Origin: Thermodesulfovibrionia bacterium
GTDB taxonomy: Bacteria > Nitrospirota > Thermodesulfovibrionia > UBA6902
NCBI GenBank assembly: GCA_963699585.1
Contig: CAVOUK010000007.1
Coordinates: 361-64,360 of the forward strand
Length of the DNA: 64,000 nt
Direction of reading: 5' to 3'
A program made the translations under genes and the position numbers. How positions within the stretch are numbered: the stretch's first letter is position 1; each line of letters opens with the position of its first letter. Shown here piece by piece: positions 8,562 through 61,612 of this stretch. A model generated the notes under the pieces. The model was not told the DNA's origin and made no database searches. It worked only from the letters and a program-made list of their open reading frames with translations.

Positions 8562-8579
8562 TTACAACCTTTAAAAAAA

Positions 8580-8657
8580 GTTTAATTAGTTTAATTAGTT
8601 GTATTAGTTCTATTAGTTAACCAACTCAACTAATGAAACCAATTCAACCAATCCAAC
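8580..8657. repeat. Nonamer tandem-repeat palindrome centred on GTTAAC (family A, copy 1)
   Basis: GTTTAATTA GTTTAATTA GTTGTATTA GTTCTATTA [GTTAAC] CAACTCAAC TAATGAAAC CAATTCAAC CAATCCAAC. Confidence 0.85.
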
Positions 8658-12108: not shown

Positions 12109-13952
12109 ATGGATGTTAAAAAGAAATTGGAGCAGGTCCCGTCTTCTCCCGGCATTTATATCATGAAGGGAAACAAAGAACTGGCCCTTTATGTAGGAAA
12201 GGCAAAAAATCTGAAAAACAGGCTAAGGTCTTATTTTCAGGATTCCGCTGCTCTTGATGTACGAAAATCGAAAATGGTGTATGAAGTCAGGGACTTTGAA
12301 TACATTGTTACAAAAAATGAACTTGAGGCGCTGATACTTGAAGCAAATTTTATAAAAAGGCTGAAACCTCCCTACAATATAATCCTCAGGGACGACAAAA
12401 ACTATCCTTATCTCAAACTGACGATAAAGGAACAGTGGCCCCGGCTTGAAGTGGTCCGCAAAATAGAGAAGGACGGCTCACTCTACTATGGCCCGTATAT
12501 CCCTTCAGGGGGTATGTGGGAAATGCTTAAGTTCATACGGCACAATTTCCCCATCCGGCTCTGCAGATACAATCTTGATAAACCTTTCAGGCCCTGCGTT
12601 CAATACCAGATGGGAAGGTGTCTTGCGCCGTGTGCAGGTGATAAAAGAACATCAGCAGATCATAGCAGATATCTGGGAATAGTTAATGAGGTCAAATCCT
12701 TTATTCAGGGAGAAAAAAAAGAACTCCTTTGCAGTCTGCAAAACCGCATGCAGCAGCTTTCGGATAAACTGGAATTTGAAGAAGCTGCCAGGATCAGGGA
12801 CAGGTTAACGGCGCTTGAAAAGGCATGGGAGTCGCAGCGGGTCATAGCCCCCGAACTCGGAGATGTGGATGTCATAGGGCTCTACAGAGAAAAACACGAA
12901 GCATCCATATTCATGTTGTTCATACGAAACGGTATGGTTATCGGCCAGAAGGATTTCTTTCTTAAAAAGGTGAGCGATATTGAAAACGAAGAACTTGTTG
13001 AAAGCTTTATAGAGCAGTTTTATTCAAAGGAGATGCTGCTCCCGCCTCGAATAATCCTTCCCTTAAAACTACAGCTGACAACGCAGCAAAAGTGGCTGAG
13101 TAAGAAAAGAGGGGCTGCAGTTGAGCTGGATTATGCAAAAAATGAACTTGAAGTTAAAGTATTGAAGATGTCTGATGATAATGCCATCTACTCTTTTAAC
13201 AGGCATATGGAAACAAAGGTTGACGAAACGCTTCTTAAAATCAAAGAGCTGCTCAGTTTAAAAAAGGTCCCGACAAGAATCGGCGCCATTGATGTGTCAA
13301 ATATTTCCGGCTCAGAGGCGGTTGGTGCATTAATCGTCTATGAAAACGGGAAGTTCTTTAAAAATGACTACCGGTTATTTAAAATAAAAACAGTTAAAGG
13401 AATTGATGATTTTGCCATGATCGGAGAAGTGGCAGGCAGATATCTCAGGAACATGGCGGAAAATGAACAAATGCTGCCGATGTTAATTCTCATTGACGGG
13501 GGAAGGGGGCAACTTGAATCCGCATTGAAAGCCATGAAACCTTTTGACATTCCTGTTGAAATCGCTGCGATCGCGAAAGCAAAAGAACGCAGGACAGAGA
13601 AAAAGCTGTCAGGAATTCGCACAGACATGGACAGGATTTATCTTCCTTCAAAAAGGGAGCCTGTATATCTGGAGCCATTTATGGCATCAACCCATCTGCT
13701 CCAGAAGATACGTGATGAGGTCCATCGATTTGCGGTAAGTTATCATAAGAAACTTCGCAAGAAAACGGACCTTCGAATCTCCGCTTGAAAAGATCAGGGG
13801 CATAGGGAAAACAAGGAGACTCCAGCTCTTAAGACATTTCGGCAGTATTGACGGAATAAGAAAGGCGACTGTAGAAGAGATAGTATCATTAAAGGGCATG
13901 AACAGGAAGGTTGCTGAGAGTTTTAAAAGAAAATCTGGGCATAAGAATGTAG
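12109..13952 (+). CDS. uvrC: Excinuclease ABC subunit C; frameshifts near 13770 and 13920 (3' end approximate)
   Basis: GIY-YIG (PGIYIM..LYVGKAKNL), RDDKNYPY, DVSNISG, LIDGGRGQ, RDEVHRFA. The HhH tail (IRGIGKTRR..LLRHFGS) is in another frame. Confidence 0.95.
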
Positions 13953-13986: not shown

Positions 13987-15112
13987 ATGATAAACAAAAA
14001 GAACATAGAAAGATACATAAAAGGGCTTTTGGGAAGTGATCTTGTCGGGATAAAGATAAAAAAACTCGGTGAGGGGGTCCAGGGAGCCGGGTTCCTGATT
14101 GATATGAAAACAAAACAGGGCCCAAAATCGTATGTTATAAAAGGGCTCTTTCCCGAAGGGCTGGAGCATGATTATCCTTCAGACAGGGCAGGCGTATTCC
14201 TCCTTGACCTTGATGAGTTTAAGAACCTGCCAAAGCATGTTAAGGCTGTTGATGTCCTGGCTGAAATGGAAGACGGCTCCATAAAATCCATCGGCGGCGG
14301 CAGGGAATATTATCTGCTGATGGAACGGGCGGAGGGCAGACATTATTTCAACGATCTGATCTGCCTTCTCTAAAAAAGAAAGACTTGATGATACTGACAT
14401 CACTAAAATAAAAACTATGACGTCATACCTTGCTGAACTTCATTCTATGAAAAAAGAGTCAAGACATCTCTACTGGAGAAAGATCAGAGATACCATTGGA
14501 CATGGTGAATGCCTTATGGGAGTATTTGATACATATCCTGACGGAACTATCAGTTATGAAGAAATAGCGGATATTGAAAAAAAGTGCGTGGACTGGCGGG
14601 CTAAATTAAAACCAGGATTCAAAAGGCTTTGCCGGATACACGGGGATTTTCATCCGGGGAATATATGGTTCAAAGAAGTCAAAAGTCAGAAGTCAGAAGT
14701 CAGCGGTAAGCACACACAAACCCCACACCCTAAACTCAAGGGGGGGCAAGGGGGGGTTATTGATTTCATTCTCCTCGACCGCAGCCGGGGGCCATGGGGT
14801 GATGCTGCAGATGATATAACTGCGTTAACAATAAACTACATCTTTTTTTCATTAAACCATTACGGACAGGTTCAGGGGACTTATTTTGAAGCGCTGAAAT
14901 TGTTTTATAATGAATATATACAAAAAACAGGAGATGAGGAACTTCTTGAAGTAGTTGCGCCATTCTATGCATTCAGGGGTTCAGTAGTCGCCAATCCGGT
15001 TTTTTATCCTGACGTGTCACCGGAGAACAGGAGAAAGGTCTTCAATTTTATACATGGAGTTCTGGATGATGAATCTTTTAAAATTGAAAAGGTAAATGAA
15101 TATATTTTGTAG
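13987..15112 (+). CDS. Aminoglycoside-phosphotransferase/choline-kinase-fold protein; frameshift near 14360
   Basis: ORFs 13987..14373 and 14417..15112. Gly-loop LGEGVQG, VIK lysine, YLLME hinge, catalytic HGDFHPGN, LLDRSRG. Confidence 0.8.
14676..14758 (+). repeat. In-frame repeat insertion in the kinase gene: (AAGTCAR)x4 plus a C-rich/G-rich hairpin
   Basis: AAGTCAA AAGTCAG AAGTCAG AAGTCAG ... AACCCCACACCCTAAACTCAAGGGGGGGCAAGGGGGGGTT; the hairpin resembles intergenic 46344-46388. Confidence 0.75.
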
Positions 15113-15131
15113 GGGCGGGGTGCCCCCGCCC
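15109..15131 (+). repeat. GTAG-type REP hairpin supplying the TAG stop of the kinase gene
   Basis: GTAGGGGCGGGGTGCCCCCGCCC; TAG at 15110-15112 is the stop codon. Confidence 0.7.
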
Positions 15132-15164
15132 TTTTCGTGTAAATAACAACCAACGGAGTTCTCA

Positions 15165-15966
15165 ATGAAAATTCAAGCTCTTAGAAAGATCGGTAAACGG
15201 CCTAAGAAAGGAAATCTTTCTCCATATAGAAGAGTTGCGCAATGCAGCTCCAATAGGAAAAGGGGCAAGCGGCGATATTACTCATCCGATTGACAAAAAA
15301 GCTGAAGACATAGTTATTGAGGAAGCAGAGAAACTCAAAATACCGCTCACTATTGTATCGGAAGAGTGCGGTGTCATAGATATCAAAGGCGGCGGGATCA
15401 AGCTTTTATTAGATCCTATTGACGGAAGCAGAAATGCATTAAGCGGGATCCCGCTGTTTTCTACGTCAATAGCAATTATTGACGGCGATACTATAGGGAA
15501 CACTTCACTGGGTTACGTAATTAACCTGATAAGCGGAGACGAATTCTGGGCAATAAAAGGCGGGGGAAGTTTCCTGAATGGAATGCCTGTAAAAACCCAG
15601 CAGGATAATACCTTCAAGGTCCTTGCCTATGAAGCCCAGACACCGAAAGTTGATATACCGGTGATTATGCCGCTGATCTCCATGTTTTCCAGGGCCAGAT
15701 GCTTTGGTTCAACCGCACTCGATCTGGCATTTCTTGCACAGGGCGCCATAAGTGTATTTGCTGTGCCCTCTAACTCAAGAAGTTTTGATTTTGCGGCAGG
15801 GTATCTGATGGTTAAAGAAGCAGGTGGTTTTATTACGGACCTTACCGGCGGGAAAATAGAAGATATCAGAATAAGCGTTAAAAGTACAACGTCTCTGCTT
15901 GCAGCAGGGAACGAAGAGCTTCATAAAAAGGTGTTAGAAGTTTTATGCAATCAAAAAAGAAACTGA
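15165..15966 (+). CDS. Inositol monophosphatase / FBPase-IMPase family; N-terminal frameshift
   Basis: SEE, LDPIDGS, FGSTAL and FDFAAG motifs; ATG 15165 follows GGAG. Confidence 0.88.
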
Positions 15967-16166: not shown

Positions 16167-16253
16167 GTTTTATTGGTTAAAACTGTTTAATTGGTTTTAT
16201 TGGTTGAGTTAGTTAACTAATCAAACCAATAGAACTAATAAAACTAATTAAAC
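16167..16253. repeat. Nonamer tandem-repeat palindrome centred on GTTAAC (family A, copy 2), nested in family B/C-like arms
   Basis: Five GTTnnnntR-type units, GTTAAC at 16212-16217, four complementary units; reverse-complement homolog of 8580-8657. Confidence 0.85.
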
Positions 16254-22186: not shown

Positions 22187-22347
22187 TGAGAATAAATTAA
22201 ATATATGCAATCTGTGTAATCTGCGGAAATATTTTTTATCATCTTCTTAAATGTACGTAATTGTCTTTTTTTTGTCAATTAATAAGATCGTTATTGCGAA
22301 ACCTGAATTTATCATTCATAATTGTATTATCCTGTAAAAAGCAGTTG

Positions 22348-22475
22348 GCCACAGACTAACACAGAGAAGAAAAAGTGCGAAGTAGAAGTGAGAAGTAATA
22401 AGTAAGAAAAAGCTTTATACTGCCTACTCCCTACTGTTCACTTCTTAATTAAATAAGTCAGTGTAAGTCAGTGGC
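22348..22475 (+). repeat. Family C MITE-like element with internal heptamer arrays
   Basis: GCCACAGACTAACACAGA-(AAGTRAG-type)n-(CCTACTN-type)n-AAATAAGTCAGTGTAAGTCAGTGGC. Confidence 0.85.
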
Positions 22476-22521
22476 TAAATGCCATTTTTAGCTTTATACA
22501 CTTTGTAACAAAGGAGGGATT

Positions 22522-43980: not shown

Positions 43981-43990
43981 AAAACATTGG

Positions 43991-44099
43991 GCCACAGATT
44001 AACACAGACAAGAAAAAATGAGAAGTTAAAAGTAAGAAGTGAGAAGTAAAGAAAAAACTTTATACTTCTTACTTAAATAAGTCAGTGTAAGTCAGTGGC
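43991..44099 (+). repeat. Family C MITE-like element
   Basis: GCCACAGATTAACACAGA...AAGTAAG AAGTGAG...AAATAAGTCAGTGTAAGTCAGTGGC; the last 27 nt are identical to the copy at 22348. Confidence 0.87.
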
Positions 44100-44118
44100 T
44101 AAAATGCTGTTTTTAGAT

Positions 44119-46245: not shown

Positions 46246-46343
46246 TAAGGTTTTACCATAAATTCATTTAAATTTCTACATGATGAATTGTCCAGTCTGC
46301 TTTTCAGTATATATATTATACGGCTTTTTATAGTACTTCTTTA

Positions 46344-46388
46344 GACCCCTCTTTCCCCCTTAATTTAAGGGGATGAAAGGGGGTTACC
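46344..46388. repeat. C-rich/G-rich hairpin element
   Basis: GACCCCTCTTTCCCCCTTAATTTAAGGGGATGAAAGGGGGTTAC; related to the insertion at 14719-14758. Confidence 0.6.
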
Positions 46389-46530
46389 GGACATGCCGCA
46401 ATGACATTCTAATTCAATCAAGCATCTTAAAATGTCATTCAGGTTATTTAGAGTTCATTGATTAAATTTAATTTTATTAGCCATTATGCCGATATATTGA
46501 TATAGCTATTATTGTAACTGGTGGATATTT

Positions 46531-59761: not shown

Positions 59762-61612
59762 TTACGGATAACTCTCGCCGGTATGGGTCCTACCATGGCA
59801 AACAAGCGTACAGTTTCCCGAAAAAGTGCCTGTATCATTGAATTCAGGGAATTGCTTGCCGGATGCCGGCATAACAACTCTTGTATCGAAATTTATCAGA
59901 TGCGTGTGACTTCCTGAAAGACCGTTGTCTGTTATTCCGTGGGGATCGTGACATACGGAACAGGGAGTGCCTTTTTAGGTCCGCAATGCGTTTTTTGTGT
60001 TCAACGTGAAACTCAAATCGCTCAGTATGCTCGTCCGGTCATGACACCTGTAGCAGAGCGCGTAATTCTGGTAGCTCTCCGGGGTATTGTCCAGGGTCTC
60101 GTATTGGTCCCTTAAGATAGGGGCGTAGGATGAACCATGAGGGCCTCTTGATCCGCCTGAATCATCACTATGGCAGTCGGTGCAATAGATGATACTTGAT
60201 GTTGTGAGGGACGGATTAAATGATGATGGTATGCTGGGTACATTAGGGTTTCTACCTGCTCCGACAACAGGGTGATAAGATGGATTTGTTATGGAAAAAG
60301 CATCCTGCATGTTCGTATTGTCAATAACTCTCGGGATGAAAGGCGTCCGCTGGAATAATTCCGCATGGCACTTAAAACAGATCTCATATTCATAATTGGC
60401 AGGATCAACAGCAGCCCTTTCGGCAGTCATTCCGGACACCTTTTCAAGCCTTCCGGATACATCGGGAGCTGATGCAGTCCGGTTGTTCGCGGCATGCGGA
60501 TTATGACAGTCTGCACATTCTACATGGCGGTTAGCAATAAATGTAGGTGATTCCGTCGGGTCGTGGCTACACCGGTGTACATAGCTCCACAGGATGCCTC
60601 GAAAGTTTCTGGAAATTTGAGAATATATGTTTTTCCCGCTACAGTTCCGTTATGGCATAGTATAGCAGGTATCTTCTTCATTAAGATGTATAGCAGCCGT
60701 TGAGGACCCCCTGCTGAATGGGGCGTATGACAGCCCTCACAAGCCCAGTCTGAGACAAGCGGCCAGGTCGGCCATGACCTTGGAGCTATGGGCAAAACAG
60801 TGCCCGTGGAGCTTGTAGATGTTTTATGGCTTGACAGCATCCAGCCGTCGATATTGCTGTGGCATGTGATGCATAATGCCGAGGCCCGGTTATCCATGAC
60901 AAGAAATTTCCCCGTCAGCTGGCCGTTCTTGTCCGACGACCTGTAGGCGTCCTCGTGCGCGTCATGACATGTCGAGCATTCAATAAACATGCTGCTGCCT
61001 CCGTAAAAAGGGAGGTCTGTAGGGAGAAGTGCCGGATTAAGTCCGGCATAAGGGTTCGGCAATGCATCGAGATACGAAAATGAGAAAGGGTGGTCGTCCG
61101 ACAGCACAACGCCGATATATGACGGCCTCCCCAGCGTGATCTGTCCTGTTGTTGCGATCCCGCCTGACGGCTGCAACACGGCTCCGAGTGCGAGGGTGCC
61201 GTCATGGCAACTGAGGCAGAGCCTTGACGGGCCATTCGGTTGTGAAGGCGTCACGCTCTGGGTCGTGCTTGTGTAAAGGATATAATTTACAGGGTCTATG
61301 GATTTATTCCACAAGCGGGGTCCTCGGAGTAGCATTATGCGGCGTATGACAAAAAATACAGATGCTGGTCTCGACCAGCGCCTTAGCTCACCCGGCCCTG
61401 ATACGGACATGTTATGCTTTGAATTAACGATCCCCACCTTTGAAACTGCGTCAGATGGAGAAACAGAAAACAGAATACAGAATACAGAAAACAGAATACA
61501 GAATACAAAATACCGAATTGCCTCCCGGCCCTGCGAACAGATTGTTAATCCGGTCAAATGCGTCGTGAGACGATTGACTGATGCCTCCTGTTCTATACAT
61601 GTTCATTTTCAT
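59762..61612 (-). CDS. Large periplasmic multiheme cytochrome c (about 11-12 hemes, doubled-CxxCH type); many frameshifts, start uncertain
   Basis: Across frames: CIFCHTPH, CLSCH, CSTCH, CITCH, CEGCH, a probable broken motif near 60660, CADCH, CFKCH, CTDCH, CYRCH, CSVCH and a terminal CTLVCH; stop at 59762. Confidence 0.88.
61464..61519. repeat. Heptamer tandem array encoding the cytochrome signal-peptide core
   Basis: (CAGAAAA CAGAATA CAGAATA)x2 CAAAATA CCGAATT; the minus strand reads YFVFCILFSVFCILFSV. Confidence 0.9.

Follow-up and report, generated by a model that had tools for sequence, protein, structure and literature searches.

In-frame heptamer and hairpin repeats at a beta-hairpin turn of a predicted kinase gene from a Thermodesulfovibrionia bacterium

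A gene for a predicted small-molecule kinase in a Thermodesulfovibrionia bacterium, one of the uncultured anaerobic Nitrospirota (assembly GCA_963699585.1; genome size 2.42 Mb), carries 26 extra codons of repeat DNA, in frame, between its catalytic loop and its metal-binding Asp. The gene lies in a stretch of 64,000 nt of contig CAVOUK010000007.1 (forward strand, 361–64,360), called the window here, whose numbering is used throughout. The extra codons comprise four heptamers and the remains of a C-rich/G-rich hairpin, and they are a derived state, because 47 of 47 distant homologues (L064–L110, 40–48% identity) keep a short turn at this place, with 12–13 residues between the catalytic Asn and the Asp. 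Very likely, an ancestral four-residue beta-hairpin turn has been invaded by dispersed repeat DNA, in a case resembling the Rickettsia palindromic elements (RPEs) but arising from heptamer arrays.

Structure of the insert

From 14639 to 14779, the plus strand encodes HGDFHPGNIWF, then KEVKSQKSEVSGKHTQTPHPKLKGGQGGVI, then DFILLDRSRG (Table 1), as had been read in an initial annotation made from the sequence alone. The Asn-to-Asp distance of 39 residues given there follows from the coordinates (Asn codon at 14660–14662), and the four AAGTCAR heptamers are borne out both by pattern counts (three overlapping double-unit matches across the window, where 0.16 would be expected and no shuffle out of 100 reaches three) and by Tandem Repeats Finder (period 7, 4.3 copies). 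Inserts at this turn lie 4–5 residues from the catalytic residues.

The rest of the insert is a worn copy of a hairpin element, laid out as CGGTAA; an A/C-rich remnant of the C-arm with short C-runs (14710–14732); a loop (14732–14739); a G7-CAA-G7 arm (14740–14756); and TTATT. Intact homologues are found at L002, at L004, and in an AroC-like gene of the same genome (G000:C10:41807). The initial annotation had proposed a C-rich/G-rich hairpin here, but as single-stranded DNA the element folds no better than its shuffles (dG -7.1, z -0.55); the corresponding values are dG -21.9 and z -4.65 for the intact hairpin of the chorismate synthase gene, and dG -13.5 and z -2.92 for an intergenic hairpin at 46338–46394. 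The likeness drawn in that annotation to the intergenic sequence at 46344–46388 holds for the type of hairpin but not for the element, since the latter belongs to a sister sub-family. Rfam has no match at the insert (two chance-level matches lie near the 3′ end of the gene), and a plasmid collection gave none.

Table 1. Features of the kinase gene, its insert, and related elements in the window
Feature	Coordinates	Strand	Remarks
N-terminal portion of the kinase ORF (APH fold, N-lobe); frame 1	13987..14373	+	Early TAA from the +1 shift
One extra T (+1 frameshift), private to this assembly	14355..14361	+	GATCTGATCTGCC here, GATCTGACTGCC in orthologues
C-terminal part of the kinase ORF	14360..15112	+	Open frame of 250 aa: catalytic loop, insert, and C-lobe
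Catalytic loop HGDFHPGN	14639..14662	+	His 14639–14641, Asp 14645–14647, Asn 14660–14662
Four AAGTCAR heptamers	14676..14703	+	Encode (K)SQKSEVS
Stretch replaced by TGGCGGC in near-identical relatives	14677..14761	+	Net +78 nt = 26 codons
Worn hairpin element	14704..14761	+	Encodes GKHTQTPHPKLKGGQGGVI; homologous to intact copies
Metal-binding Asp codon (LLD of DFILLDRSRG)	14777..14779	+	Aligns with DLD of YihE
G+C-rich hairpin and T-run immediately 3′ of the kinase stop	15112..15136	+	Read from the sequence
C/G hairpin from a sister sub-family, intergenic (CCCCTCTTTCCCCC...GGGGATGAAAGGGGG)	46344..46388	.	3–4 copies in the genome
Gene with leader array (L142)	60523..61602; array 61459..61518

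The insert as a derived state

The initial annotation had predicted a clean gap of about 25 residues in orthologues; the gap is there, and measures exactly 26 codons. Contigs from two sequencing runs (X1 and X5) join position 14676 to position 14762 through TGGCGGC alone, giving a base allele (AAAGATGGCGGCGAT) that is 78 bases shorter and encodes KDGG-D, the canonical four-residue turn. The X1 contig is otherwise very close to the window (15 differences in 715 bases, ~98% identical), and the metagenome locus L032 has the same KDGG base loop. Orthologues with an equally long loop in genomes free of the repeats, which the annotation had named as the result that would speak against insertion, were not found: genomes with 0–3 array matches have the short loop throughout, and all 15 insert-bearing genomes have at least eight.

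Turnover at the turn

In an alignment of 112 full-length homologues, the turn is the sole internal indel site, and 64 of the 112 have at least three extra residues there. When the loop columns are left out and a tree is built with FastTree (with modest support, 28 of 108 branches being starred), presence or absence of an insert changes at least 22 times on it; one clade with branch lengths of at most 0.04 holds four different turn states. The inserts of relatives are built from a variety of heptamers (AAGTCAG, CGGTCAG, GAGTCAG, AGAATAC, CAGTTCA, GGGGCAA, and AAACTCT), some accompanied by a C/G hairpin or a GTAG-type palindrome and others by neither. Nine of the ten other genomes in genus g1 have inserts of 14–29 aa, in seven make-ups; the remaining one has KEEGT.

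This turnover is fast. The window gene and the loci L031 and L032 differ by dS values of 0.09–0.13 (0.134 between the window gene and L031, 0.133 between it and L032); L031 has the same array as the window gene followed by a different second module, of the AAACTCN type, and L032 has no insert. At least four turn alleles occur among relatives with a dS of about 0.13 or less, and near-identical contigs include the base form, two hairpin-only forms, and a CGGTCAG-plus-hairpin allele. An orthologue of 64% identity (L050) has an identical 33-nt array start.

Repeat-like tails are also seen at the C-terminus (e.g., KGFKGSRGRGF) in 19 of the 112 orthologues (P0020, P0032, P0033, P0073, P0103, P0109, and others), which may be a second site where repeats get appended to the kinase.

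Repeat families in this genome and its relatives

Both parts of the insert belong to dispersed families, as had been proposed. The genome has 53 period-7 arrays of at least 21 nt, with AAGTCAG the commonest unit and most units fitting NNGTCAG. The pattern GTCAGNNGTCAGNNGTCAG, of the NNGTCAG type, matches 42 times, against 2 for the reversed control, and arrays of this type are enriched in most of 41 related genomes. Period 7 itself is over-represented (43 perfect runs of at least three copies, against 0, 2, 6, and 0 for periods 5, 6, 8, and 9), and the size range is narrow, with 4–5 units in 45 of the 53 arrays.

The hairpin family has the consensus C5-7 AT C6-7, a short loop, and G6-7 NNN G4-7, with TAAC...GTTA ends. 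Its pattern is present in 18 of the 41 genomes, in some with up to ~20 copies, and has zero control matches in all 41; the window's own genome has just one other exact copy, in frame in the chorismate synthase gene. A strict C/G-hairpin regular expression is not enriched by itself in this genome (5 matches, against 3 for the reversed control); the family was established with a more specific pattern. The peptide searches suggested in the initial annotation found 18 occurrences of SQKSEV-type peptides in open reading frames (ORFs) of at least 100 aa, and three of KGGxGG (the kinase, chorismate synthase, and one native motif).

The AAGTCAG strand has no stops, while its complement holds TGA; with stops on one strand of the repeat and none on the other, a single orientation fits in a gene. 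The hairpin likewise has a single open frame, used by both genic copies (kinase and chorismate synthase).

Two other kinds of repeat occur in the window. An intergenic composite repeat of ~130 nt is present in two copies (22340–22480 and 43990–44110), and contains CCACAGAYTAACACAGA, GAAGTAA-type heptamers, and a doubled TAAGTCAGTG. At 8579–8657 and 16167–16253, two different 9-mer arrays stand back to back, with ~4 copies each.

The host gene and its product

The C-terminal part of the ORF scores 22.6 bits against PF01636, just under the Pfam cut-off of 23.2; many full-length orthologues have a precomputed match to this family. In all, 1495 homologues were retrieved, the best 120 of which are Nitrospirota-type proteins of 231–400 aa, many with PF01636. 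The catalytic columns (H218, G219, D220 ... N225) and D262 are invariant in all 92 aligned homologues. Among solved structures, the closest in sequence is that of E. coli YihE (E 0.0056); its HGDCHAGN...DLD aligns to the catalytic loop and LLD of the kinase; over the turn itself, YihE (WRDGPMFVDLD) and the short form of the kinase (FKDGGDFILLD) align without gaps. A Foldseek search with the AlphaFold2 (AF2) model of P0003, a close orthologue with a homologous array-plus-hairpin insert, recovered methylthioribose (MTR) kinase (2pyw), choline kinase (3mes), PsiK, YihE, and aminoglycoside phosphotransferases (APHs), with E values of 5e-7 to 8e-6 and TMq of 0.36–0.57. The gene product is predicted to be a conserved small-molecule kinase with an APH/choline-kinase/MTR-kinase fold; no NCBIfam profile was over its cut-off for it, so none gives a subfamily or substrate.

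In the P0003 model (mean pLDDT 81.5, pTM 0.79), the insert (residues 233–254) has pLDDT <50 and lies between strands 226–230 and 256–260. The 26-residue insert of the window gene is predicted by analogy to form a disordered, hydrophilic surface loop at the hairpin tip, and is presumably translated.

Insert-bearing copies of the gene are under purifying selection. Values of dN/dS are 0.03–0.17 in all pairs, also where both genes hold inserts (0.12–0.17 for the window gene against L031 and against L032), and in each of the 14 other genomes with an insert the frame stays open, without stops, for 365–436 aa. The insert itself may well be neutral.

In this assembly the kinase ORF is split, with an early TAA, because of an extra T near 14358. 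Orthologues P0002–P0009 read uninterrupted through ...HYFNDLTAFSKKERL..., and the contigs of all four runs compared omit one base at 14360. Six of ten sampled genes of the assembly, including uvrC, are split over frames, pointing to consensus indel errors, and its estimated completeness is 84% despite there being only 12 contigs. The +1 frameshift is probably an assembly error. Just upstream in the window, the 3′ end of uvrC (13760–13940) also continues in another frame.

Two further features adjoin the gene. The hairpin just after its stop codon is terminator-like, and may resemble the GTAG-type palindromes of this genome, to judge by its letters. Downstream, in 23 of 29 related loci, the kinase has an IMPase/FBPase-family gene (15235–15966 in the window) as its neighbour; the two could possibly be a functional pair, which might hint at the kinase substrate.

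In-frame repeats elsewhere in the genome

The kinase is not alone in this. Of 20 ORFs that span an array, at least nine hold it within the envelope of a Pfam domain (MqnA-like, CbiA, MurC-like, MurD-like, HlyD, HATPase_c, chorismate synthase, ThiL, and PurL). Seven more have it in an N-terminal leader, six of these in signal-peptide position and one just before a pilin methylation motif. In chorismate synthase, three loops are filled with different repeat peptides across relatives (L144–L172); the copy in this genome (G000:C10:41763-42725; L132, L143) has two repeats in frame, a TCAGCGG array and a C/G hairpin that is intact. Hairpins of the form GTAGGGGCG...CGCCCCTAC are found beside arrays, and inside loops of MurD, ThiL, and kinase orthologues.

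An in-frame TAA in the chorismate synthase gene of this genome is accounted for by a pair of compensating indels. The leader arrays are of the TTACTGC/AGAATAC type (L136, L137, L138, L140, L141, and L142), with hydrophobic stretches resembling LLLTAYCLL, and belong to BamA, TolB-like, and HlyD proteins, M16 and M23 peptidases, and a multihaem cytochrome. Because the arrays encode the hydrophobic stretches of these leaders, repeat DNA seems to supply signal-peptide cores.

A possible history, and its alternatives

The alleles of near-identical relatives suggest an order of events. A palindromic C/G hairpin element of ~48 nt would have landed in the turn; an array of about four NNGTCAG heptamers would then have arisen at its 5′ flank; and, in the lineage of the window, the C-arm would have decayed or been partly replaced, leaving a hairpin that no longer folds. 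Only frame-keeping, stop-free insertions would survive, the loop being read through and the catalytic residues staying in place, at what may be among the very few sites where a tightly conserved protein tolerates extra residues. Repeated gain, loss, and replacement at the turn would come from a high genome-wide repeat flux combined with the tolerance of the site. The mechanism with the best support is such a flux, with protein tolerance and the requirement for an open reading frame acting as filters.

Several observations weigh against invasion of the turn by dispersed repeats. The ORF is frameshifted upstream, and if the shift were real, the insert would lie outside a full-length kinase in this strain. 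The exact allele was found in no sequencing run (the best share of sampled words is 0.34), so that the worn C-arm is known only from an error-rich assembly. The related genomes are non-independent samples. Several are repeat-rich and yet keep the short turn (G022, with 22 array matches; G026, with 28; G024, with 16; and G005, with 13), so the repeats are not sufficient by themselves. In this genome, arrays are only weakly associated with hairpin stems of at least 9, which lie near 9 of 53 arrays and near 36 of 530 places chosen at random. The junctions in the loci of relatives and in the contigs show neither a conserved target motif nor a consistent target-site duplication. Finally, indels are absent even from the sequence-variable parts of the protein, which tolerance alone may not explain; a mutational preference for the turn may play a part.

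Two of the alternatives would remove the insertion or the functioning gene from the picture. That the long form is native to the family, with short turns arising by deletion, is scarcely credible: tree counts cannot tell gain from loss, but the spacing of 12–13 in all 47 outgroup homologues, the short turn of YihE, the make-up of the inserts from dispersed repeats, and the variation of short-turn sequences between lineages, which is like that of ordinary diverging codons, all speak for the short form as the older one. It is improbable, if less drastically so, that this is a recent pseudogene, in which the +1 shift is real, the kinase dead, and the insert junk in a decaying gene. The split near 14358 and the unusually worn C-arm of the hairpin would suit such a gene; against this, the contigs of the four runs compared, which are 95–99% alike, lack the extra base, and the assembly shows the same kind of split in uvrC and other sampled genes as well as low completeness for its 12 contigs. 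The dN/dS values against L031 and L032, and the homologous inserts in intact genes of 14 other genomes, are also hard to reconcile with decay.

The other alternatives accept the insertion and differ on what drives it. A site-targeted cassette, inserted and precisely excised by a Y1 (IS200/RAYT-type) transposase-like enzyme, or spread by microhomology-templated copying between repeat loci, is conceivable but on balance unlikely. The hot spot would then owe more to mutational targeting than to what the protein tolerates. Such a cassette would account for the changes concentrated at one site of the protein with none elsewhere, the clean base-state alleles in near-identical relatives, the narrow array size and specific enrichment of period 7, the array start shared with L050, and the middle of the window insert, which in DNA alignment resembles both sister alleles in a mosaic-like way; Y1_Tnp genes are present in 37 of the 41 genomes. 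However, the junctions show no target motif or duplication, the number of Y1_Tnp genes in a genome does not follow its heptamer count, arrays and hairpins are only weakly associated, and chorismate synthase behaves in the same way at three unrelated loops, as would be expected of a tolerance filter. In a stronger version, which we consider rather doubtful, Thermodesulfovibrionia-type Nitrospirota would have an active sequence-specific system by which cassettes of about four heptamers beside a mini-hairpin are put in, exchanged, and neatly taken out, coding DNA included. If so, surface loops of housekeeping enzymes, even four residues from a catalytic Asn, would be hypervariable regions at the population level, and the cassette repeats might also provide ready-made signal peptides. 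A selected function for the insert, as a Ser/Thr-rich docking or regulatory loop by the active site, or as a slippage switch (which a heptamer array could be, since its unit length is not divisible by 3), seems quite improbable. One distant clade does keep array and hairpin in nine of nine orthologues over branch lengths up to 0.25, and the inserts are placed close to the catalytic residues; but insert sequences are unrelated between close relatives, many lineages have none, and the model predicts disorder. No out-of-frame variants in array length are seen among the compared contigs, which are poor evidence on this point.

Invasion of the turn by dispersed repeats, if correct, means that repeat DNA makes new protein sequence near an active site, repeatedly and fast, without killing the enzyme. 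The turn offers a set of naturally occurring insertion variants, all at a single structurally defined site, in which tolerance and possible new functions could be tested, and a tractable marker locus for the spread of heptamer arrays and mini-hairpins, a long-noted but unexplained class of repeats. There is a practical point for annotation as well: such inserts lengthen proteins and lower profile scores (here to just short of the Pfam cut-off), and could pass for domain novelty.

Comparison with known repeat systems

Heptanucleotide repeats have been described in other bacteria, including an excess of heptamer simple sequence repeats with the Calothrix repeats (PMC4692102), and the TAACTGA repeats of Beggiatoaceae, cyanobacteria, and Bacteroidetes (PMC4679880). 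They are described there as mainly intergenic and possibly regulatory. The arrays reported here share with them the 7-nt unit, array lengths of about four units, and the over-representation of period 7; they differ in the large share found inside conserved domains and signal peptides, in their NNGTCAG units, and in their Nitrospirota host.

Repetitive extragenic palindromic (REP) sequences, or GTAG-tagged palindromes, are associated with REP-associated tyrosine transposases (RAYTs; PMC3733652). The likeness lies in their being small, dispersed, G+C-rich palindromes, and Y1_Tnp genes are present in the genomes studied here, although across the 41 genomes these have no visible relation to repeat load. 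The kinase hairpin is unlike them in having TAAC...GTTA ends, C/G homopolymer arms, and no GTAG tag, and in being intragenic, where REPs are extragenic by definition; its membership in the REP/RAYT group was rejected on the last two grounds. As for features of miniature inverted-repeat transposable elements, the hairpin ends are palindromic (TAAC...GTTA), and the junctions have no consistent duplication. Elhai and colleagues reportedly described, in 2008, small dispersed repeats nested within heptamer arrays of Nostocaceae, a similar arrangement in which tiny, hairpin-like mobile elements accompany tandem heptamers. In a literature search that left most subscription journals outside its reach, no paper was found on such repeats in Thermodesulfovibrio-type Nitrospirota, nor on heptamer cassettes that recur in frame in the loops of enzymes.

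The closest published analogue appears to be the RPE, a selfish repeat found in frame in unrelated metabolic genes (Ogata et al., 2000, as cited in PMC10969869). RPEs and the kinase inserts are alike in kind: both are dispersed repeats read through as extra peptide (here predicted), with the fold seemingly kept. RPEs are described there as being ~150 bp long, forming a small number of defined families and encoding a conserved peptide, while the inserts considered here are mosaics of 40–120 nt, made up of about four heptamers and a ~48-nt C/G or GTAG-type hairpin. Here, moreover, the inserts turn over between near-identical strains, and the same loop has been struck repeatedly.

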